Virus record (IMG/VR): IMGVR_UViG_3300014502_000006
Coordinates: 11,147 to 75,146 of that record
Length of the DNA stretch: 64,000 nt
Source of the DNA: a virus
Direction: 5' to 3' (one strand)
This document shows, piece after piece, positions 10,865-60,137 of the stretch. The notes beneath the pieces are model-generated. The model saw nothing but the letters and a program-made list of their open reading frames with translations, had not been told where the DNA came from and did not search any database. The stretch's first letter is position 1. Each line of letters begins with the position of its first letter. Made by a program: the position numbers and the translations under genes.

Positions 10865-12181
10865 CTATCCGGCATTGTCGTTCAGCCATGCACCGCGCAA
10901 ATAAACATCAAATGCTCTGATGCTCGAACCGCCATCGCAGCTTACCGTTAGCTTATCTGTAACACATCTTTTTTTGTTCCAGATGTGAAAATGATTATCG
11001 TCAACCTGTACAAAACCGTAACATTCAATAGGAACAGTATGAACATCACACGTGATAAGGAATGAGTCTGGTTGCTGAACATCATTCTCATACAAATATA
11101 CGCTGTATATCTGGTCTTCCTTTTCAAGAATATAGTTTCTATCAGGACTAATTATTATGCCAGTATTTGTTGCAGGAGAAGCAGTAACTGTTATAGTACA
11201 AGCAGCATGTACTGGATTTCCTTCAATGGTGGCTGTTATTGTGCAAGTCCCATTTCTTACAAGGGTAACAAGACCGGTATCATTAACCGTAGCAACACCA
11301 AAACTAGAAGTTTCCCATAGCACTTTTCTCATAGTGGTGTCTCCATTATAGGTGATACTTGGGATTAACTGTATAGTATCTCCAACCTTTCCCTCAGCGG
11401 TTGCCCTGTTCAAAGTAAGTGTATAAACATTTGTATTAACACTAGCAATTCCGTTTACAATATCGTCTAATTCCTCATTGACAAAATCAGCCGTTAGGTC
11501 AATCACCAATAATTTAGAACTTTCATTATCATCTGTGATATTGTTTCTAAAATCGTTCAAACCGCTACCGACCACTTTATAGCAAGTCCAGTGTTCAGGA
11601 TTACCAAACAAAAATCTTTGGTTTTGCCTTATCTTATTGGTGTTCTCGTTAAACTGCGTCCACATATGCATGAAACCACCCGGTGTTTCAAATGGAGAAC
11701 CGCCTGTAGAATAATCTCTAGGCTCTTTTAACTCATATTTAATAGTGCAAGGTTCTTCATAATATACACCCGTAGGTTCATCAATCCATCTTAACATGTT
11801 ATTGCATCTACGAATGGTGCAAGTGCCGGTAAGGTTCTTATAGAATTCGGTATTTACGGTAATCCACGTATTATTATCAAAAAGATAATGCTTACCCAAA
11901 TCTATCGGGTGGTTAACGTCTTTAAATAGCAAACCCTTCCAGTCATCGCCCAAATCCAAACCTGTCTCTGTATTAATAACATGGTTGATGCGTACATCAA
12001 GGTCTACATATTCCTTTGAACCAACATATGTTTCTTCCTGTATAGTCCACCAATCGGAAGAATTATAGAACTGATTGTTTAGGGTTTGCTGAAATAGTTC
12101 AATGTAATCGTCTTTTGGAGTTTTACCTCTTTTGCCCGTTATGAGCAACCCCGCGGGAACATATTTATATGTGTATGGCAT
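10865..12181 (-). CDS. Head-tail joining protein with Ig-like (Big_2) domain
   Basis: VGDTIQL...VLWETSSFGVATVNDTGLVTLVRNGTCTITAT is a Big_2 signature; neck position. Confidence 0.65.
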   Translation of the reverse strand: MPYTYKYVPAGLLITGKRGKTPKDDYIELFQQTLNNQFYNSSDWWTIQEETYVGSKEYVDLDVRINHVINTETGLDLGDDWKGLLFKDVNHPIDLGKHYLFDNNTWITVNTEFYKNLTGTCTIRRCNNMLRWIDEPTGVYYEEPCTIKYELKEPRDYSTGGSPFETPGGFMHMWTQFNENTNKIRQNQRFLFGNPEHWTCYKVVGSGLNDFRNNITDDNESSKLLVIDLTADFVNEELDDIVNGIASVNTNVYTLTLNRATAEGKVGDTIQLIPSITYNGDTTMRKVLWETSSFGVATVNDTGLVTLVRNGTCTITATIEGNPVHAACTITVTASPATNTGIIISPDRNYILEKEDQIYSVYLYENDVQQPDSFLITCDVHTVPIECYGFVQVDDNHFHIWNKKRCVTDKLTVSCDGGSSIRAFDVYLRGAWLNDNAG

Positions 12182-34472: not shown

Positions 34473-48658
<14,186 letters not shown>

Positions 48659-48698: not shown

Positions 48699-49193
48699 TC
48701 AGCCCAACCCTACGGGGGTTGTTGGATTCGTGTTTGTGGTTGTTGTGGTGCTACCGCCAGTATTATCAGAAGGATTGGTAGTAGTTGTTATAGTGCTACC
48801 GCTGCCTGTATTATCGGAAGGGCTGGTGGTAGTCGTTGTGGTAGTATTTGAATCATCGGATAAAGATAAAACTTCTGCTTCGATATAAGCAGAAAGAATA
48901 TCTTGGCCTATTATGATTTTTCTACCCGTAAGTATCTTGGTAGCCGTATCCATCGCATATTGTTTTCTATCGGTTATTTTTTTGGCATTGTATAATTGTT
49001 GTGCCGCACTCACCGCCATATTAGCAACAAATTTTATTTGTTCTCCCCTATCACCTGTTAGTTTTAATCTTGCTATATTGGTGTTTGCAGCAGCCAGTTG
49101 TATTCTTTTCGTAAGCAATATTCCAACCGCAGCAGCGATGGGGAGTAAAAGTGCAGATGCAATTGATGCAAGAACAGGCCAGAATGCTTCCAT
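48699..49193 (-). CDS. Putative holin (LLH-like) with Thr-rich tail
   Basis: Single N-terminal TM segment, AVSAAQQLY...RKQYA...IEAEV pattern. Confidence 0.55.
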   Translation of the reverse strand: MEAFWPVLASIASALLLPIAAAVGILLTKRIQLAAANTNIARLKLTGDRGEQIKFVANMAVSAAQQLYNAKKITDRKQYAMDTATKILTGRKIIIGQDILSAYIEAEVLSLSDDSNTTTTTTTSPSDNTGSGSTITTTTNPSDNTGGSTTTTTNTNPTTPVGLG

Positions 49194-49260: not shown

Positions 49261-49332
49261 AGCCGAATAGTGGAATTGCACCACTTACATTCTCTTTACA
49301 AGGGAGACGTTCTACTGGTGAACTAATCCGGC
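49261..49332 (-). tRNA. tRNA-Thr(UGU), atypical D- and T-loops
   Basis: GCCGGAT/ATTCGGC acceptor, GTTC/GAAC D stem, loop CTTGTAA, AGTGG-TGCAATT-CCACT T arm; CCA not encoded. Confidence 0.8.
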
Positions 49333-49762: not shown

Positions 49763-51244
49763 CTACACTGCAATGCAGTCGTACTTCGGGTCGCTCAAAG
49801 TTTCTACCATCATGTCGTATGGGGTCAAGCCAACACCCTTCAAGATTGCCTTGAAAACGCTAGGTGACTGACCGGAAGCCAACTGGACACCGTGCTCGTC
49901 CATTTCGGCATGGAATACATTTCTGTTGCGTGAGTCTACCTGCCAGTAGACCATGTTAGGCAACTCGTAACCTGCACGAGCAAACTTCTCCTTCATCGCC
50001 TTGTTGAAAGTCTTTCCTCTGCTGTTTTCAGCAGAATCAATTTCCATATCGGAAATGATGATGATAGACTTTGGCATATCCGCCTGTGGCACACTGTACT
50101 TTACAGCAGTATCCAGAACTAGCTCGAATACAGCCTGTAGGTTGGTGTTCGCCACAATGGATGGCACGCACTTAATCTTGTCCTTAAGCGTCTTACCGGT
50201 CAAGGTAACGAAGCTAGGACTCTCGGAGAAGGTAATGAACTGGTTCTTGAACTGACCGGTGTTGCGCTCAGCAAAGTAGACAGCCAAGCCAACAGAGGTG
50301 CAGATAGGGCGACCTTCCATAGAGCCGGAAGTATCAGCAACGATAAGTACATTGTCGCCATCTTCCACATAGTTAGGAAGTGCCTTCCACTGCTCTTCAA
50401 GAACTTCATCCCAACTGCTCATGTTGAACTTTCCACCATAGCCGTAGCCAAAACCGAACCCCATCTTCTCGAAGAGGTCGTATGGATACAGGGTAGCAGA
50501 GTGAATAACTGCTTCACCCTTCTGTACCTTGGTGATGAATGAAGTGAAGCCCTCAGGGTCGTGGCGACCAAAAGCCTTGCGATAGTTCGCCATAGCCTTG
50601 CTAGGTACTGCGGAGTAGTTAATCTTATCCCATGCCTTTGCAGACATGAAAACTTCGGTCAACTTCAACCAGCCACGAAGCATAGCCAGATGCTTACGGT
50701 AATCGCGCTCGCTGTAGCCAATGTGCTTGGCGGTCAACTTACCAAGCTTGCGAGATTCCGGGCTACTGGTATTAATGGACTTCAACCACTTAGCCATTAA
50801 AGAGATAGGCTGTCCATGCTCGTAAGCGTTAATATCCTTGCTCCACTGCTCGGCAATCAAACCCCAAGCAATGCCCTCGGCTTCTGTTCCGATGAACGAA
50901 TAGATATCATCCCAACGTCCGAACTCAGGGATGTGTGCCATGTTTCGAATCATAGTGTCACGATGGGTACTGGCAAGCCAAGCCCACATGCGGCGTGCAA
51001 CTTCACGCTCGCCCAAACCACCACGCACGTTACGCGCGTAGAAAGAAAGCTTGGTGGCAAGCAACGGATTTTCGTTGTATGCCTTCTCGAACATGGAGTC
51101 CACATCATGTGGGCGGGTGCGCAATGCGCCTACCACGCCGAACAAGTCCAGTAAAGGACTTCCGGTAGAGCCAATGGCATCCGCACCATTCTCAGTGCGA
51201 GTCCAACTGGAGTTAGTAGCAAGTCGCTGTGCAAAAGTATTCAT
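49763..51244 (-). CDS. DUF2828-family TROVE/Ro60-like protein with C-terminal vWA domain
   Basis: TENG, LDLF, ARNVRGGLGER, PEFGRWDD, AKWLKS, YRK.L..LR, YSAVPSKAM motifs; vWA MIDAS ADTSGSM...NTN...ISDME.D. ATG at 51244 with GGAG RBS. Confidence 0.85.
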   Translation of the reverse strand: MNTFAQRLATNSSWTRTENGADAIGSTGSPLLDLFGVVGALRTRPHDVDSMFEKAYNENPLLATKLSFYARNVRGGLGEREVARRMWAWLASTHRDTMIRNMAHIPEFGRWDDIYSFIGTEAEGIAWGLIAEQWSKDINAYEHGQPISLMAKWLKSINTSSPESRKLGKLTAKHIGYSERDYRKHLAMLRGWLKLTEVFMSAKAWDKINYSAVPSKAMANYRKAFGRHDPEGFTSFITKVQKGEAVIHSATLYPYDLFEKMGFGFGYGYGGKFNMSSWDEVLEEQWKALPNYVEDGDNVLIVADTSGSMEGRPICTSVGLAVYFAERNTGQFKNQFITFSESPSFVTLTGKTLKDKIKCVPSIVANTNLQAVFELVLDTAVKYSVPQADMPKSIIIISDMEIDSAENSRGKTFNKAMKEKFARAGYELPNMVYWQVDSRNRNVFHAEMDEHGVQLASGQSPSVFKAILKGVGLTPYDMMVETLSDPKYDCIAV

Positions 51245-51274
51245 TTTCAAAAGTCTCCTTTAAAGAATTTTACT

Positions 51275-51332
51275 AGACGCATATAAACGAGTCAAATTTG
51301 CGGTTTGATTGGTTGGGTTGCTGTTAGCGTCT
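51275..51332 (-). ncRNA. CAGCAA-scaffold small RNA unit 6 of array (cargo: anticodon-arm-like hairpin, loop CCGCAAA)
   Basis: AGACGC-TAA-CAGCAACCC...TCAAA-CCGCAAA-TTTGA...GCGTCT. Confidence 0.7.
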
Positions 51333-51350
51333 TAATAATTTAAATTTGTC

Positions 51351-51483
51351 ACGACAGTTTTCCCACTTTTTGTTTTACAAGAGAAGCTGGAAACTCTTTT
51401 TTTCTGAGAGTAGGCTTTCGCCCCTCTTTCAGAATCATGAGTTGTGACGTGTTAGGTCTGTTTTGGGTTGCTGAGCCTGTCGT
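51351..51483 (-). ncRNA. CAGCAA-scaffold small RNA unit 5 of array (long cargo, GAAA tetraloop hairpin)
   Basis: ACGACAG-GCT-CAGCAACCC...GGGC-GAAA-GCCT...CTGTCGT-GA. Confidence 0.7.
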
Positions 51484-51504
51484 TAGTACTTTTTTTAATA
51501 TATC

Positions 51505-51602
51505 ACGGCGGTTCTTTTTTTCCCCGCCTACGGGGAGTAAAATCCCGTTGGGATTTTATTGGATTCGAACCAATCAGTATTTTGGGTTGCTGCACCCGCC
51601 GT
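51505..51602 (-). ncRNA. CAGCAA-scaffold small RNA unit 4 of array (cargo: canonical T-arm plus two hairpins)
   Basis: ACGGCGG-GTG-CAGCAACCC...ATTGG-TTCGAAT-CCAAT...CCGCCGT-GA. Confidence 0.75.
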
Positions 51603-51617
51603 TCTTTATAATTCCTC

Positions 51618-51672
51618 AAGACCCTTATTTATCAATTAACAGTTGATTTATTTTGGTTGCTGTCCGGGTCTT
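51618..51672 (-). ncRNA. CAGCAA-scaffold small RNA unit 3 of array (cargo: tRNA-Asn-like anticodon arm)
   Basis: AAGACCC-GGA-CAGCAACC...ATCAA-CTGTTAA-TTGAT...GGGTCTT-GA. Confidence 0.75.
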
Positions 51673-51690
51673 CTTACTTTATAATTCATC

Positions 51691-51747
51691 ACGACCCATT
51701 TAAGATTCTTCTGATAGAATTTTTTATTGGGTTGCTGTTAGGGTCGT
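51691..51747 (-). ncRNA. CAGCAA-scaffold small RNA unit 2 of array
   Basis: ACGACCC-TAA-CAGCAACCC...ATTCT-ATCAGA-AGAAT...GGGTCGT-GA. Confidence 0.75.
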
Positions 51748-51762
51748 ATTTTATAATTTCTC

Positions 51763-51819
51763 AAGGCTCTATTTTTTTCCAGTTTTCATATTGGTTTTTT
51801 GGGTTGCTGTATGAGCCTT
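51763..51819 (-). ncRNA. CAGCAA-scaffold small RNA unit 1 of array
   Basis: AAGGCTC-ATA-CAGCAACCC...CCAAT-ATGAAA-ACTGG...GAGCCTT-GA. Confidence 0.75.
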
Positions 51820-51834
51820 TCAAATCATATTACT

Positions 51835-51863
51835 ATTATACCACACTTTTCGATTTTTGTCAA
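51835..51863 (-). promoter_or_regulatory. Consensus sigma70/sigmaA promoter for the RNA array and DUF2828 gene
   Basis: TTGACA-17 bp-TATAAT with TG extended -10. Confidence 0.85.
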
Positions 51864-52232: not shown

Positions 52233-52347
52233 TTTTTATCTCCTCTCTTAAACCAAGAATACTCATCTTATCGGTATATCGCTTGCATATCGTCTAGATG
52301 TGACAGTGTAATTCGCTTTTATTATAATAAAACTTATATTTTATGCT

Positions 52348-52414
52348 AGACACATTTTAGGGGTTGAACCTATCTGCCCGAAGGCATTTAACCTAGAGAT
52401 TGCTGTATGTGTCT
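52348..52414 (-). ncRNA. Orphan CAGCAA-scaffold small RNA (unit 7) with UUCG hairpin and T-arm
   Basis: AGACAC-ATA-CAGCAAT...TGCC-TTCG-GGCA-GA-TAGG-TTCAACC-CCTA...GTGTCT. Confidence 0.65.
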
Positions 52415-52418
52415 GAGG

Positions 52419-52489
52419 CAGGTAGTGAGAGACTTGAACTCCCATCAAGAGTTTTGGAGACAATTATCCTTCCATTAGACGAACCACCT
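52419..52489 (-). tRNA. tRNA-Trp(CCA), anticodon stem with two mismatches (possibly degenerate)
   Basis: AGGTGGT/ACTACCT acceptor, loop CTCCAAA, T-loop TTCAAGT; anticodon stem ATTGT/ACTCT. Confidence 0.6.
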
Positions 52490-52904: not shown

Positions 52905-53048
52905 ATGCCCTGCGTTTTGAACAGTCGCAGGAACTGTGGAGAGATGAGGCAAGACCTCATGCTCTCTCCGCCACTTGCATTTGATAGATACAAGAAACTA
53001 TGCTCTCTCGGCCACCAACATTTTAAAAATGCTGGAAACTTTGTTCAG

Positions 53049-53122
53049 TGGACACGGCGAGATTTGAACTCGCAACTCTTTCTTGCAAAGGAAGTGTTTT
53101 CCCGGTTGGCTACTACGCGCCC
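53049..53122 (-). tRNA. tRNA-Ala(UGC), weak D arm
   Basis: GGGCGCG/CGTGTCC-A with G3:U70, loop TTTGCAA, GCGAG-TTCAAAT-CTCGC. Confidence 0.8.
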
Positions 53123-53836: not shown

Positions 53837-54418
53837 CTACTTGTCAGGATTAATATTCTTATAAGCTTTTATATTGTCTCCGTCTACCTGACAAACAAAA
53901 CCCTTATCCGTCAAACGCTGTATTTCCCCATTCGTATTCTCCAACGGACAATTTCTCCATTCGAACATAATTCTTTCTATATTGGATATATCGAACTGCG
54001 ATAATATATCGCAATCCATTCCTTCTGCATCTATTTTTAAATAATCTATTTGCCGAATATTATATTTATCCAATAATTCTTTCACGGTTATCATCGGGAC
54101 TTTTATTTTTTCTACAAGCCCTTGGAATTTGACTTCAAAATGATTGATATCTATAGAACCCAAACCTCTTACCCATTCTCCAAAACCATAAGCATACATT
54201 GTGTTTTGTGGAATATAGAAAAAGGTTACTGCTTTTGATTCAAGTCCGATAGCCGAGTTCTCGTAGAAAACGCCCGGAACTCTTTCAATCATATTGAAAT
54301 ATTCTGGAACGGGTTCTACGAGCAGACCTTTCCAACCCGCTTCTTTTGCGAGAGGGAGAAGAGTTTCATAATAGTTCGAACCGATTTCTACAAAAAATTT
54401 ATTGTTCATGTCGCTCAT
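53837..54418 (-). CDS. FkbM-family methyltransferase
   Basis: FVEIGSN, WKGLLVEPVP, IDYLKIDAEGMD..IL, FE. Confidence 0.85.
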   Translation of the reverse strand: MSDMNNKFFVEIGSNYYETLLPLAKEAGWKGLLVEPVPEYFNMIERVPGVFYENSAIGLESKAVTFFYIPQNTMYAYGFGEWVRGLGSIDINHFEVKFQGLVEKIKVPMITVKELLDKYNIRQIDYLKIDAEGMDCDILSQFDISNIERIMFEWRNCPLENTNGEIQRLTDKGFVCQVDGDNIKAYKNINPDK

Positions 54419-54458
54419 GTTGGTTTTTTAAGAATGGCTTGTGCTATTAAATCACCTT

Positions 54459-55388
54459 TTATGCACCGCCCGTACCTGTTAAACCGCCTTTCAGCCACCA
54501 AGTATCCGTATCTTGTTTGTGAAGCGTTACACCGGCAAACTCACCAGCCAAATATATATCAGAACGCAAACTCTGGATGGTAACACCTGTATCTCCTACA
54601 ACCGTTACTTGACCCACATTTCCTTGCTCCAAATCAATGAGCGTGCCAATAGGAAAGTCGGTAGTTGTACTAACCGGTATAACCGCGGTAATAGGTGCTA
54701 TGTTGGAAAGAACAACCAGTTTTCCAGCATCTGCCAAGCCAAGGGTATATGATGTACCGGTATCGCCTTGTATACTTTCAAAGCCGAATGCGCCAGTAAC
54801 GCCGGTTGAACCAACAGCGCCTAAGCCAGTAACACCAGTTTCACCGATAACGCCTAAGCCTGTAACACCCGTAGCGCCAGCGCCACCTAAACCGGTAACG
54901 CCAGTCTCGCCAATAATGCCTGAGCCGGTTACACCAGTATCACCAGAACCACCTAATCCGGTAACACCTGTAGCACCAACACCACCTAAACCAGTTACAC
55001 CAGTATTGCCAACACTACCCAAGCCGGTAACACCTGTAGCACCAACGCTACCTAAACCAGTAACGCCGGTATTGCCAACACTACCTAAACCAGTAATTCC
55101 TGTAGCACCACCAATACCTAAACCGGTCACTCCAGTAGAGCCACGCACACCGGTTACCCCGGTATTACCTGCGCCGCCCCCACCTCCGCCACTGATGGGC
55201 AGATAATAATCGCTTAGATATTCGTTGTCGGCTACTATTCTCCATTCCATAGTGTCGGTTAGATATATCGTAGAGCCAAGAATGCTTGCACCGGAAATGG
55301 TTTCGTTCCCATCTATATCGGTTGCTATATCTGTTGATAGTGCCGTATAGTTCGGCACATTAAGTCTTCCAATAAATTTTAGAGCCAT
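54459..55388 (-). CDS. Gly-X-Thr collagen-like protein with C-terminal fibre-associated domain
   Basis: 11-aa repeats G(N/A/E)TGVTGLG(S/G)V; C-terminal SYTL.LADAGKLV...FPIGT.I...Q...GQVT...DTW. Confidence 0.75.
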   Translation of the reverse strand: MALKFIGRLNVPNYTALSTDIATDIDGNETISGASILGSTIYLTDTMEWRIVADNEYLSDYYLPISGGGGGGAGNTGVTGVRGSTGVTGLGIGGATGITGLGSVGNTGVTGLGSVGATGVTGLGSVGNTGVTGLGGVGATGVTGLGGSGDTGVTGSGIIGETGVTGLGGAGATGVTGLGVIGETGVTGLGAVGSTGVTGAFGFESIQGDTGTSYTLGLADAGKLVVLSNIAPITAVIPVSTTTDFPIGTLIDLEQGNVGQVTVVGDTGVTIQSLRSDIYLAGEFAGVTLHKQDTDTWWLKGGLTGTGGA

Positions 55389-55456
55389 CTATAATCCTCC
55401 TTTGCCCCCTCATCGGGGAAAAAACATAAGAGGAACTATTATAAATTATAGAACCT

Positions 55457-56692
55457 CTATTTATTATATTTATCTTTTGGCAACCAGTGCCAGCCGGGTT
55501 GAGTGGTATCTATTGCACTCTCGTATAAATGATACAAATCCTCGAACCACTTCTGATATTCTAATTTGACATTATCCATCAGGTAACGTTCTCCGTACTC
55601 CCGTATCTTTTTATGATTGACGGTTTTGGCTTTCAATGCGGCTTCTACAAAGTCCTCCAGTGTATTACAACGGAAACCGATAGTCCCGTTCACGCAGTCC
55701 GGTATCGTACCGGGAAAAACACCGAAGTTAGTTGTGATTGGAGGCGTGCCAGAGAGCATCGCCTCAATATGAGTGCCGCCGAATATTTCCATGTATTCGG
55801 TTGGTACGAACATAGCAGTTGCGTTCGCCATTAAAGGCTTGCGTTCTTCCACTCCCTTGTAGCCGACATATTCCCAAGTCATCGGTTCTAGGTCGAAGTC
55901 CAAATCACCCGTTGGCTGTAAATGCCCATTGGACAATACCCTGCCACCCTGTCCGGCGATAATAAGTTTTGCACCGATGGCACGGCAAGCCAGAGCCGCC
56001 GTGATAATTCCCTTGCGCTTAATCATGCGCCCGATGTAAAGATAATAATCTTCTTTTTTATTGCTGAACTCGAAATCATCGGGGTCAAAGAAATTAGGGA
56101 TAACGCGGTCATAATAAGAACCGTTTATATCCCCTCCGGGGTGCTCACTACCGTAGGTAAAGTTTTGCATGGAAGAACTTTCAAAAGCGCGGAAATGGTT
56201 TTGTTTAGGGAAAGAGCCACGATAGCCGATACCCGATTCGCAGGAGAGGAACATGTTCAGTTCGTCCTCGATGCATTTGAAATAGTAACCCATTGAGTTC
56301 AAAAGAAAATCATCAGGTTTGCCTATTTCTCGGATATGCTCGACCACGTTTCTATAAAATTTGAGCGTGGCTGGTTTCTTGTCAGTATTGAAGTCGTGGC
56401 GGAACTCGCCACCGTGCCAGTTATAACCAACTTCAAACCGGTTGTCGCCATCGCCCCATGAATCGCAAATATCTTTCAAAGTGTGAGTTTGCACAAAGTG
56501 CAGTTTATCAGAGTTGCAGTATTCTTCCACATCACTGCCCTCACTACCATAGAAGAAGACCTCGTTCCCTAAAGAGGTAAGCATTTTTGCCAATTTGCGA
56601 TTTTTCTGTGTAAAAGCACAGGACATATATTCCTTGCTTTGTGGAAGATGAACCAGTGACAGCAAGTGAAATCTAAAAGTTTTATTTTCCAT
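55457..56692 (-). CDS. GT4 (GT-B) glycosyltransferase
   Basis: YIGRMIKRKG, E.FGGTHIEAMLSGTP (E-x7-E). Start moved to MENKTF (56692), overlapping the upstream gene end. Confidence 0.85.
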   Translation of the reverse strand: MENKTFRFHLLSLVHLPQSKEYMSCAFTQKNRKLAKMLTSLGNEVFFYGSEGSDVEEYCNSDKLHFVQTHTLKDICDSWGDGDNRFEVGYNWHGGEFRHDFNTDKKPATLKFYRNVVEHIREIGKPDDFLLNSMGYYFKCIEDELNMFLSCESGIGYRGSFPKQNHFRAFESSSMQNFTYGSEHPGGDINGSYYDRVIPNFFDPDDFEFSNKKEDYYLYIGRMIKRKGIITAALACRAIGAKLIIAGQGGRVLSNGHLQPTGDLDFDLEPMTWEYVGYKGVEERKPLMANATAMFVPTEYMEIFGGTHIEAMLSGTPPITTNFGVFPGTIPDCVNGTIGFRCNTLEDFVEAALKAKTVNHKKIREYGERYLMDNVKLEYQKWFEDLYHLYESAIDTTQPGWHWLPKDKYNK

Positions 56693-57290
56693 ATTGACTT
56701 CCCATAAAGATACCGTAATAGGCATGCCCGACACAACCGCTTTCGTTGAGCAGTTCTGTTTTGCCATAACCACCCAACCAGCTATTCATTTTGTTCTCGG
56801 TAAGAACGTGCAAATGCCCATCGGTTTCAGGTATATCCAGCCATTCAAAAACACGAATTATTGTAGAGTAAGCGCGTGCAATTTTGATGACCTCGGCAGG
56901 GTCAATAACATGCTGTAAGCAATTGTACAGCCATACCTCGTCATAGCACTTGTCCAGTTTCAGCCCTTCGGCTGGCTGTACAATATATTTTATTCCTGCC
57001 GCAGCATAGCGCGCATAAACCCAATCAGGAAATTTGCAGGGGTCAACCACCACTGCTTCACTGAATCCGCTGGATTTTAACAACAAAGAATATGCACCGC
57101 CCCCAATATCCAGTATACTTGCGTTTTGCAAGATAATATTATAAGGTGTCCTTACATCATTGTAAAAGGACAGCCCCATTCTTTTTGCATAGACAATCTG
57201 TTTTAATTCCTCGTTTAAAGAATTAACGCAGTTGCCATGCCATAGGCGTTCCCATTCTTGTGCTTCCTTCCATTCGTTACTTGCTGACAT
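56682..57290 (-). CDS. Class I SAM-dependent methyltransferase
   Basis: ILDIGGG, VVDP, YD.V..YNCLQHV.DP. Confidence 0.8.
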   Translation of the reverse strand: MSASNEWKEAQEWERLWHGNCVNSLNEELKQIVYAKRMGLSFYNDVRTPYNIILQNASILDIGGGAYSLLLKSSGFSEAVVVDPCKFPDWVYARYAAAGIKYIVQPAEGLKLDKCYDEVWLYNCLQHVIDPAEVIKIARAYSTIIRVFEWLDIPETDGHLHVLTENKMNSWLGGYGKTELLNESGCVGHAYYGIFMGSQYGK

Positions 57291-57863: not shown

Positions 57864-58694
57864 TTATTGTAATAATGCCGCCAACGCAGCGGTTTCAGAG
57901 CGTTCTGTTTTTATCAGATGAACACTCCCATATAGTTTATTACCTGTCAATCTGTCGCTCAGTCTTTCCAAGCCTGAGTTCTCTTCGAACACAACCTTGT
58001 CGGATTGTGCTGTGTCACCCAAGAACATAATAACCGAGTTCTTGCCAATACGAGAAACAAGCAGTGTAACGTGTTCTCCTGTCAGGTTCTCTGACTCATC
58101 CACGATGACAATGCTGTTCTCGAAACTGCGCCCACGGGCAAAGCCCAAGTGGAGCAGTTCTATCCTTTCGTCTTCCAACAGGCGGAACAGTTCCGCCTGA
58201 CTACCAAGAAGGTCAACCGCTGGCATTGCAAACGGTAAGAGTTTTTCGTTGATACCAGCCGGTAATGCACCCAAAGGGCAGGAGTTCTTTACTTCGATAT
58301 TATTGCGTATCATCACTATCTTTTTGTAAATGCTTTTGCCCTTCCCCCAATTATCAATTGCTTCCAGTGCATAAGTGAAAGCGCAGTAGTTTTTGCCGCT
58401 ACCGGCAACCCCTGTGATTTGTTTTACAGTGATGCTCTCATCCTGCAATAAATCGAACAGCGCCTGTTGCTCGTCATTCACAGGTTTTATCTTACCAATC
58501 CTGTGACTATCAATTGGTTTGAATTTCAGTGGTACGAGCGAATTGCCATCCCATTTCCTTTTCTCTATAATTTGGTCTCTTTCGTCCTTTATGAAAAGGT
58601 ACTGATTGGTTTCCAAATCCGTTTTGTATTTCCCCTCATAGAGTGCTGCAATATCAACATCTGTTAACGTTACGGTTCTTATTCCTGTATTCAA
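57864..58694 (-). CDS. phoH: PhoH-family ATPase
   Basis: N.EQ, GVAGSGKN, LPAGINEKL.P, RGRSF, DESENL, SRIGKNS, GD..QSD, ERS. Confidence 0.9.
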   Translation of the reverse strand: MNTGIRTVTLTDVDIAALYEGKYKTDLETNQYLFIKDERDQIIEKRKWDGNSLVPLKFKPIDSHRIGKIKPVNDEQQALFDLLQDESITVKQITGVAGSGKNYCAFTYALEAIDNWGKGKSIYKKIVMIRNNIEVKNSCPLGALPAGINEKLLPFAMPAVDLLGSQAELFRLLEDERIELLHLGFARGRSFENSIVIVDESENLTGEHVTLLVSRIGKNSVIMFLGDTAQSDKVVFEENSGLERLSDRLTGNKLYGSVHLIKTERSETAALAALLQ

Positions 58695-59174: not shown

Positions 59175-60137
59175 CTAAATTTTTATAAGATATGTGCTAT
59201 AAATCCATCCAGTAGGATTAGGAGATATAGTATGAGAACGCGTGCCGCTTGTAGTGTCTACTTCTACAATCGTATTTCTATACAGCACCCCAATAACCGG
59301 GTCTGTATCTGCCGCACCACTGCGCACATTTACGTTCACCGCTGTTTTATATTTTGGATAGGCTGGCGCAGGTGGGGTAGGCGGAACAGGCGGTGGCACA
59401 CTGCCGAATGATGGATAGACCGCGTTGTAATCCGCTGCTTTCTTGATGCCCACATAACCCGGTATTGCGCTTGGACTTACGCGGGAAGTGAACTGCCAAA
59501 TAGCCGGGGTTTTCCAAGGCAATAATTGCATCGGAAGCAATGCCCCGCTGTTTATTTGTGCCTTGAGCGTAGCCAGAGAGTTTGAATAAAACAGGTTGAG
59601 AGGTTGATTTGCAATATACCAGTCTTTTATCCAGTATGCCTCTGCAAGTTTATATCTTGCTGCCCACGGTGCGTTCCTGTTGCCACCTATTGAATTCCAG
59701 AAAGAAGGATAGGTATAAATCAGCATACGAGAAGCGGGCATGACTTTTTCTACCCTTGTCATAAAGGCGTTAGCCCGTGTAAGGCATGTATTAGCGTCTT
59801 GCCCATCTTGCGTCTCGAAGTCCAACATTATAAAATCATTAGGAGTAAAACCGTTTGAAGCCAGTATGCTCACGAAATAATCTGCCTGTTGAGTGCCCAA
59901 TAGGTTACTGCGGAAGAAGTGATAAGCCACACGAACTTCACCACCGGCTTTTGCAGCCGCCCATTGCATAGCAAAAGATGGGTCTGTCCAGCCTGTGCCT
60001 TCGCTTGCTTTGATAATGGCTGTACCAATACCGCCCTGAGTACGCGCCGTTGTCCAATCCATAGCCTTATAACTTCCATTGGCTTGTTTTGCATCATAGG
60101 AACTTACGTCAACGCTCCAATCTGATATTAGATTCAT
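59175..60137 (-). CDS. Endolysin, GH25 muramidase with Pro linker and SH3b domain
   Basis: DVSSY, IKASEG...DP.F, AYHFF, LDFE, IYT, WQFT; C-terminal VNVRSG...PVIG.L...GWI. Confidence 0.9.
   Translation of the reverse strand: MNLISDWSVDVSSYDAKQANGSYKAMDWTTARTQGGIGTAIIKASEGTGWTDPSFAMQWAAAKAGGEVRVAYHFFRSNLLGTQQADYFVSILASNGFTPNDFIMLDFETQDGQDANTCLTRANAFMTRVEKVMPASRMLIYTYPSFWNSIGGNRNAPWAARYKLAEAYWIKDWYIANQPLNLFYSNSLATLKAQINSGALLPMQLLPWKTPAIWQFTSRVSPSAIPGYVGIKKAADYNAVYPSFGSVPPPVPPTPPAPAYPKYKTAVNVNVRSGAADTDPVIGVLYRNTIVEVDTTSGTRSHTISPNPTGWIYSTYLIKI

Follow-up and report, generated by a model that had tools for sequence, protein, structure and literature searches.

CAGCAA-handle RNAs with tRNA-arm inserts as candidate partners of a Ro60-like protein in a peat-soil phage

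Which RNAs are encoded by a chain of small folded units placed in front of a phage gene for a predicted ring protein, and what might they serve? The question is raised by a locus of a peat-soil phage, located on the minus strand of a 64,000-nucleotide (nt) stretch of the IMG/VR virus record IMGVR_UViG_3300014502_000006 (positions 11,147 to 75,146, hereafter the window), where an array spanning about 600 nt and readable on the minus strand precedes the gene of a DUF2828 protein. A first-pass annotation had taken the array for a library of isolated tRNA arms acting as decoys against tRNA-targeting defences. We consider it probable that the array gives rise to CAGCAA-handle RNAs, which are partners of the Ro60-like protein and display pieces of tRNA amid a conflict over tRNA cleavage and repair. 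This reading is built on the structure and covariation of the RNAs, the pairing of the RNA family with the gene, the Ro60 fold of the protein model, the enrichment of tRNA arms in the inserts and the linkage to RtcB in relatives.

Handle RNAs and the gene that follows them

On the minus strand, the locus runs from a promoter through six units (51819-51273) and a Shine-Dalgarno sequence into the gene (49763-51244). The six units of the array and a seventh, orphan unit each have a closing stem of 7 base pairs (bp), the motif NUA-CAGCAA and a variable insert; the 2-3 bases and CAGCAA(CC) stand right after the 5' strand of the stem. The strands of the stem vary from unit to unit with complementarity kept (GGCTC/GAGCC, GACCC/GGGTC twice, GGCGG/CCGCC, GACAG/CTGTC and GACGC/GCGTC). 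The gene and the units are as follows.

49763..51244, minus strand: gene of the Ro60-like protein (DUF2828 + DUF7788/vWA), 493 aa, ATG at 51244 with AAGGAG before it
51762..51819, minus strand: unit 1, 7-bp closing stem and AUA-CAGCAA; insert hairpin weak
51690..51747, minus strand: unit 2, closing stem and UAA-CAGCAA; hairpin ATTCT-ATCAGA-AGAAT (51705-51720)
51617..51672, minus strand: unit 3, closing stem and GGA-CAGCAA; ATCAA-CUGUUAA-UUGAU (51631-51647), putative mimic of a canonical Asn GUU anticodon arm
51504..51602, minus strand: unit 4, closing stem and GUG-CAGCAA; canonical T-arm ATTGG-UUCGAAU-CCAAU (51558-51574), followed by two hairpins rich in G+C
51350..51483, minus strand: unit 5, long, with an insert of 113 nt that contains a GCGAAAGC tetraloop hairpin and further stems
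51273..51333, minus strand: unit 6, closing stem and UAA-CAGCAA; hairpin TCAAA-CCGCAAA-UUUGA (51292-51308)
52346-52415, minus strand: orphan (seventh) unit, directly behind tRNA-Trp and upstream of the array promoter; closing stem and AUA-CAGCAA

With RNAfold, all units form the closing stem, and units 2, 3 and 6 also form the inner hairpin. A search of the array for ribozymes and other Rfam families at expectation values (E) of up to 10 returned only a sub-threshold match to RF01414 and chance-level matches. Two further candidates were rejected. Tandem promoters on the plus strand (TTGCTG-14 nt-TATAAT) have the wrong spacing, were not called by the promoter scan and lack TATAAT in relatives, and opposite-strand units are nearly absent; a kink-turn or C/D-box, considered for the GTGATGA-like tails, is not borne out by the flanking G-A positions, which by reading are not conserved across units.

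The family was followed in 241 loci encoding relatives of the protein, drawn from viral, metagenome and genome collections, with units detected by a rule (5-bp stem, 1-4 nt, CAGC[AG]A, insert, complementary strand, NWG). Within 1.5 kilobases upstream of the gene in 67 distinct viral loci, 208 units lie on the gene strand and a single one on the opposite strand, with about 5 in shuffled sequences; across the 241 loci the figures are 717 versus 62, and at least one upstream unit is present in 205 of the 231 loci with sufficient upstream sequence. Of 409 distinct units, 377 are also paired at the position just outside the five pairs of the rule, where 191 would be expected, and all four Watson-Crick types occur there; therefore the true closing stem is of 7 bp, followed by an invariant G. 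Closing stem and inner hairpin both covary in an alignment of 37 diverse units (A2, made with MAFFT): 95.4% of the cells pair, a percentage that is partly built in because these units were preselected for hairpins, while the variety of pair types is not. Changes on both sides number 129 versus 36 in shuffles (0 of 500 reach this value), and controls with slid partner columns give 32-48% pairing.

Other arrangements of the units occur among relatives. A complete five-unit array stands in tandem duplicate upstream of the gene in L004 (870-2031). Seven loci (L010, L043, L045, L025, L053, L102 and L109; e.g., L045:2216-2333) have tRNA-like genes of 110-120 nt that Rfam scores as tRNA, where the handle is circularly permuted (3' strand, small loop, 5' strand, CAGCAA) and replaces the anticodon arm.

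The DUF2828 protein has thousands of homologues. It matches PF11443 (6.6e-43) and PF25043 (1.3e-36) in Pfam and phrog_850, 'RNA-binding protein' (3.6e-128). Its AlphaFold model, with 30 homologues in the alignment, has a predicted local distance difference test score (pLDDT) of 91.2, and the top 12 of the Foldseek matches listed against PDB are all Ro60/TROVE chains (E 4e-8 to 1.5e-4, template modelling (TM) scores 0.41-0.59), with matches from Xenopus, human, Deinococcus and the Thermus phage phiLo. The model predicts a HEAT-repeat ring with a vWA domain, that is, a Ro60-like fold. Residues D306, S308, S310 and D401 are invariant in the 30 homologues, the first three as a DxSxS motif, and the pattern is like that of a metal-ion-dependent adhesion site (MIDAS). 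A profile search of PDB sequences with this protein found no Ro60, and PADLOC and NCBIfam gave nothing for it.

Transcription of the array and the gene may be read from the following features.

51835..51863, minus strand: sigma-70 promoter, TTGACA-17 nt-TATAAT with TG preceding the -10 element, 12 of 12 consensus matches in the promoter scan
51267-51295, minus strand: promoter-like TTGACT-17-TAAAAT, 10 of 12 matches, overlapping the hairpin of unit 6
52417-52489: tRNA-Trp, adjoining the orphan unit 52346-52415

The promoter is directed into the array and then the DUF2828 gene; an identical one stands upstream of the array in L001, the closest viral relative, and a similar one in L014. On the minus strand, no terminator-like site was found between promoter and gene. 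This placement of the array, together with the promoter-like site overlapping unit 6, would suit a leader acting only in cis, on the translation or stability of the DUF2828 mRNA. We regard such a role as highly improbable, since the orphan unit lies outside the transcript, behind tRNA-Trp, 86 units of relatives are located downstream of the gene, and in L001 a separate open reading frame stands between array and gene. That reading frame (L001:786-1500) replaces the last unit, and by reading its start resembles a GIY-YIG homing endonuclease, which makes it a putative one. As for the site at 51267-51295, it could yield a second, array-free transcript of the DUF2828 gene. In four peat studies, the array is covered with full identity by metatranscriptome contigs, which cover the neighbouring genes about equally well; these contigs are without strand or ends and may include DNA carry-over, and we do not use them as evidence of expression or processing, nor do we read anything into the tRNA stretches that they leave uncovered.

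tRNA arms in the inserts

The hairpins named in the first-pass annotation are all present on the minus strand, beyond chance, and they start 6-9 nt past CAGCAACC(C), as it had described. A perfect 5-bp stem with a 6-7-nt loop occurs in three of the four short inserts (P ~1e-4 for at least three of four, from shuffles of each insert). The hairpin of unit 3 (ATCAA-CTGTTAA-TTGAT in DNA letters, 51631-51647) is, as was claimed, a canonical Asn(GUU) arm that has all four features of an anticodon arm, i.e., 5-bp stem, 7-nt loop, U33 and purine 37. That of unit 4 (ATTGG-TTCGAAT-CCAAT, 51558-51574) is a canonical T-arm with a 5-bp stem and a loop of the G-UUCRANY-C type; the unit has no D-arm, and when it is folded alone with RNAfold the minimum-energy fold prefers another pairing over the T-arm. 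The insert of the orphan unit carries a cUUCGg hairpin and a T-arm-like UAGG-UUCAACC-CCUA.

The remaining inserts are further from tRNA. Two imperfect arms with 6-nt loops had been proposed, and one of them holds: the hairpin of unit 2 has a perfect 5-bp stem and the loop AUCAGA, a degenerate anticodon-arm shape. The other one, CCAAT-ATGAAA-ACTGG in unit 1 (51779-51794), is weak, a mismatch following its first 3 bp. In unit 6 the hairpin has the shape of an anticodon arm and fails at U33, having C at this position. No tRNA arm was recognised in the insert of unit 5, which is conserved in L001 and partly in L082; its CTCATGA and CTTGTAA, previously taken for loops, are not hairpin loops in the folds obtained and have no flanking complementary arms.

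The proposal that homologous arrays would be enriched in such hairpins is upheld, with strong enrichment both of 5-bp/7-nt hairpins with C32, U33, A37, A38 and a variable triplet and of T-arms. Of 296 distinct short inserts, 92 have a dominant hairpin with a 7-nt loop, versus 14 in dinucleotide shuffles, and 61 of these 92 loops match YUNNNRN, versus 1.2 in shuffles and 11 on the reverse complement. The strict frame CUNNNA[A/C], on stems of 4 bp or more, was counted 99 times (2.9 in shuffles, maximum 6); the stem of these arms is most often of 5 bp, and they are placed 8-10 nt past the motif and 6-10 nt ahead of the 3' strand. When 77 distinct 7-nt loops are selected by folding alone, C32 is present in 65%, U33 in 78%, A37 in 78% and A38 in 70%, positions 34-36 are the most variable, and an A-U pair closes 41 of the loops. 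Loops of real tRNAs are copied, e.g., CUGUCAC of Asp. T-arms (G-UUCRANY-C) are found in 96 of 453 distinct units, versus 0.1 in shuffles, and only 5 of them overlap a real tRNA call. Some units of relatives are whole tRNA-like bodies in the order of YrlA.

Close relatives, among which the arrays of L001, L082 and L083 were read, illustrate the turnover of triplets. In L001, with 78% protein identity, the orthologue of unit 3 is ATCAT-CUGCUAA-ATGAT, with stem and triplet changed and the frame kept, and that of unit 2 has the 7-nt loop CUAUCAC. At the position of unit 6, L082 (80% identity) carries ATCAA-CUGCUAA-UUGAU and L083 (67% identity) a CUUGUAA loop. Within a group of gut phages with more than 85% identity, one stem carries either CUGUUAA or CUGCUAA, and one loop is found on two different stems. 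Two readings of the loops as enzyme substrates were rejected: a substrate of tRNA-guanine transglycosylase (U33-G34-U35) fits only about 30% of the mimics, and one for N6-threonylcarbamoyladenosine (t6A; U36-A37-A38) is inseparable from the A+T-rich composition.

At the level of sequence, these data support reading the inserts as mimics of tRNA arms. The word "library" overstates the case of this phage: its array has a single canonical anticodon arm and a single canonical T-arm, besides two arms that are degenerate and two inserts without a recognisable arm, one of which forms only a weak hairpin. One can suggest that the RNAs descend from tRNA genes and that the arms have no function in mimicry, being remnants or neutral hairpins that lend stability: the DUF2828 gene often lies within tRNA clusters (tRNA genes are present in the flanks of 122 of 242 loci), some handles are inside whole tRNA-like bodies, and units 1, 2 and 6 are degenerate here. 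Such an origin of the arms as mere relics seems unlikely to us, because different lineages retain the loop frame (C32, U33, A37, A38) and the 5-bp stem despite covarying stems and changing triplets, while neutral relics should decay evenly.

tRNA damage and the possible uses of the arms

The triplets of the mimics are not distributed as those of tRNA genes. Among 69 distinct mimic arms, Asn GUU occurs 13 times and Lys UUU 12 times, while their shares of the 375 genuine tRNA genes in these loci are 4% and 3%; they are over-represented with odds ratios of 5 and 6 (p ~1e-4 and 5e-5), and of 62 protein lineages 9 and 7, respectively, have such arms. PrrC targets Lys UUU, and PARIS AriB targets Lys UUU, Thr UGU and Asn GUU. 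The commonest conserved neighbour of the DUF2828 gene is the RNA ligase RtcB, found in 17 loci and 14 of 111 lineages, on the same strand and usually about 50 nt downstream; an AAA_33-type P-loop kinase is near the gene in four lineages. RtcB stands, e.g., at L175:3464-4669, and also in L186, L183, L174 and L226, with the order RNA array, ring protein, RtcB. The skew towards Asn and Lys, RtcB and the flanking tRNA genes would place the system in a conflict of tRNA damage and repair, from which we infer a decoy role only as a candidate.

In its strict form, the decoy explanation states that anticodon arms titrate or trap anticodon nucleases (PrrC, PARIS AriB, colicin-E5-like), with one triplet per nuclease. 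It is consistent with the kept frame and varying triplet, with the over-represented targets of AriB and PrrC, with the A31-U39 closing pair in 41 of 77 loops, which gives the UAAU common to AriB targets, and with the very strong host-type promoter of the array. However, AriB needs contacts with the D-loop and other distal features beyond the cleavage site, and a bare arm has no D-loop; abundant host tRNA would compete with the decoys, and titration does not account for a ring protein with an intact MIDAS-like site. Inserts with T-arms, tRNA bodies or non-tRNA sequence misfit a bait for anticodon nucleases, T-arm and non-tRNA inserts equal anticodon arms in frequency, and this phage has a single canonical anticodon arm. 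The strict form is, in our opinion, a possibility to be held tentatively.

The same idea was published for YrlA. In Salmonella, tRNA halves induce the operon rsr-yrlBA-rtcBA, and a possible role as competitive inhibitor of the anticodon nuclease was proposed for the tRNA-like module of YrlA (PMC7790460). The order of array, ring gene and RtcB in the relatives recalls this operon. The likeness extends to linkage with RtcB (here in relatives) and to tRNA damage, and, more generally, to the arrangement of bacterial and phage Ro60 (Rsr) with YrlA/YrlB, where genes of partner RNAs adjoin that of a vWA ring protein (PMC4201824, PMC7790460). Like YrlA, each RNA consists of a closing stem and a tRNA-mimicking module; one unit of L083 has the YrlA layout (T-arm, closed stem, D-arm) and reaches 34 bits on the YrlA model RF02553 versus its 69-bit threshold, and in the window this model has no match at E up to 10. 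Unlike Ro60/YrlA systems, the protein belongs to Pfam DUF2828/DUF7788 and not to TROVE, and the handle is a free-sequence stem with CAGCAA instead of the bulged Ro-binding helix of Y RNAs. Many inserts are a bare anticodon arm, the sole part of tRNA that YrlA lacks, and up to six units are chained per leader.

The phage phiLo Ro60 has genes of two partner RNAs (Yrl1/Yrl2) just upstream, and a counter-defence role was suggested by its authors (PMC12135203; PDB 9kop, 9l5y). The system analysed here is likewise a phage-encoded ring with partner RNAs upstream, and the phiLo protein ranks among the best structural matches to the model; in contrast, the phiLo protein is a true Ro60 homologue, its RNAs have a CGAA motif, and its documented partner is the host polynucleotide phosphorylase (PNPase), not a reader of tRNA arms. 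Such particles suggest a use that is not directed at defence: the arms may tether the ring to host enzymes of tRNA processing, tRNA modification or RNA decay, thus remodelling host RNA metabolism or stabilising RNAs. For this adaptor role speak the Ro60-like fold, the parallel with Ro60-Y RNA-PNPase particles, the recruitment of host PNPase by phiLo Ro60 with its two Y-like RNAs (PMC12135203), the modification of YrlA by tRNA enzymes (PMC4201824) and the equal frequency of T-arms and anticodon arms. It leaves the turnover of triplets between near relatives and the Asn/Lys skew unexplained, and we consider it doubtful.

We propose for the array a scheme in which it is released as separate small CAGCAA-handle RNAs, each with a free-sequence 7-bp closing stem, NUA-CAGCAA and a variable insert. 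These RNAs would most likely partner the Ro60-like DUF2828 protein encoded downstream, as Y RNAs partner Ro60, with the handle presumably bound by the protein. The inserts would display pieces of tRNA, in this phage an Asn anticodon arm and a T-arm, both exact, and two anticodon arms in degenerate form, and the particle may offer these tRNA-like surfaces to proteins that read tRNA arms. The mimic could then either occupy anticodon nucleases or act alongside repair.

Several observations weigh against this scheme. In the window, canonical tRNA arms are present in only two of seven inserts, therefore the constraint on the remaining inserts is weak or of another kind. Of 62 protein lineages, only 20 have anticodon-arm inserts and 21 have T-arms within the available flanks. 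The protein does not belong to TROVE in Pfam, its only matches there being PF11443 and PF25043. The units of A2 were preselected, as said above, and the "distinct" sequences in all our counts are still mutually related. Neither RtcB nor the AAA_33 P-loop kinase was found in the 75-kb record, which is 53% complete, and thus no conclusion is drawn from their being missing.

A more specific form of the proposal is a Ro60-like ring holding exchangeable RNA baits, with the triplets of bare anticodon arms retuned in each lineage against the tRNA-cutting defences of the host. Such a modular, RNA-based anti-defence system would act beside replacement tRNAs and RtcB repair and be related to the Class I RNAs of social amoebae; we put it forward as a conjecture, which may well turn out otherwise.

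Genomic setting and kinship with other RNAs

In the window, the genes around the array and the ring-protein gene include the following.

48699-49193, 57864-58694, 59175-60137 and 53837-56773: holin, PhoH-like protein, endolysin, FkbM-type methyltransferase and GT4 glycosyltransferase

The cassette of the ring protein is thus placed among late and lysis genes, with a host-type promoter of its own. About 430 nt downstream of the DUF2828 gene, Rfam calls a tRNA at 49261-49332 (minus strand, 51.7 bits) that ARAGORN does not call; its anticodon region is CUUGUAA (Thr UGU-like), with the closing pair mismatched. A match to wcaG RNA near threshold (39 vs 42 bits) and then a weak match resembling transfer-messenger RNA (E 9e-5) are located at 52959-53122 (minus strand), adjoined by tRNA-Ala. 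One open reading frame of 4622 aa (34473-48341, minus strand) lies amid genes with tail-fibre and collagen-like PHROG matches, and metatranscriptome contigs have repeat-type joints inside it.

Outside Ro60 systems, a similar build is that of dictyostelid Class I RNAs (RF01414; PMC7919456). These are of about 60 nt; their ends are joined by a short covarying stem, the 5' G is conserved, an 11-nt motif (T3, C6, C9, A10, A11) lies beside the 5' stem, and the remainder is variable. They start with AAG and have a YUG-type end (PMC7919456). The handle RNAs share this build, the 11-nt motif being xxUAACAGCAA here. In a relaxed Rfam search, unit 1 matches RF01414 best (18.6 bits, E=1), and an anticodon-arm unit of L025 reaches 26.8 bits on this family, the threshold being 41.5. 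Unlike the handle RNAs, Class I RNAs are reported from amoebae only, have an RRM protein as partner, and no tRNA-arm inserts are described in them.

Phages also bypass tRNA-cutting defences with tRNAs of their own, such as those of T5 against PARIS and retron Eco7 (PMC11464382, PMC11555353, PMC10264068, bioRxiv 10.1101/2025.02.04.636281). The handle RNAs resemble T5 tRNAs in being phage-encoded RNAs centred on the anticodon arm, with the same species concerned (Lys UUU, Asn GUU, Thr UGU, Tyr GUA). Unlike these units, which cannot be aminoacylated or decode, T5 tRNAs are whole and functional and replace the cleaved host tRNAs. In the literature searched, neither RNAs associated with DUF2828 proteins nor phage RNAs that display anticodon arms are described.

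Cleavage of tRNA is now recognised as a common anti-phage strategy, and the known answers of phages are replacement tRNAs and repair by ligases. If the proposed role is true, a small RNA displaying only an anticodon arm on a protein-bound handle would represent a third answer to tRNA cleavage, and the tRNA-like side of Ro60/Y-RNA particles, a question dating from 2014, would gain a testable function. The design of handle plus insert is simple enough for laboratory reprogramming. For the amoebal Class I RNAs, the family also suggests a possible protein partner and a counterpart in prokaryotes or viruses.

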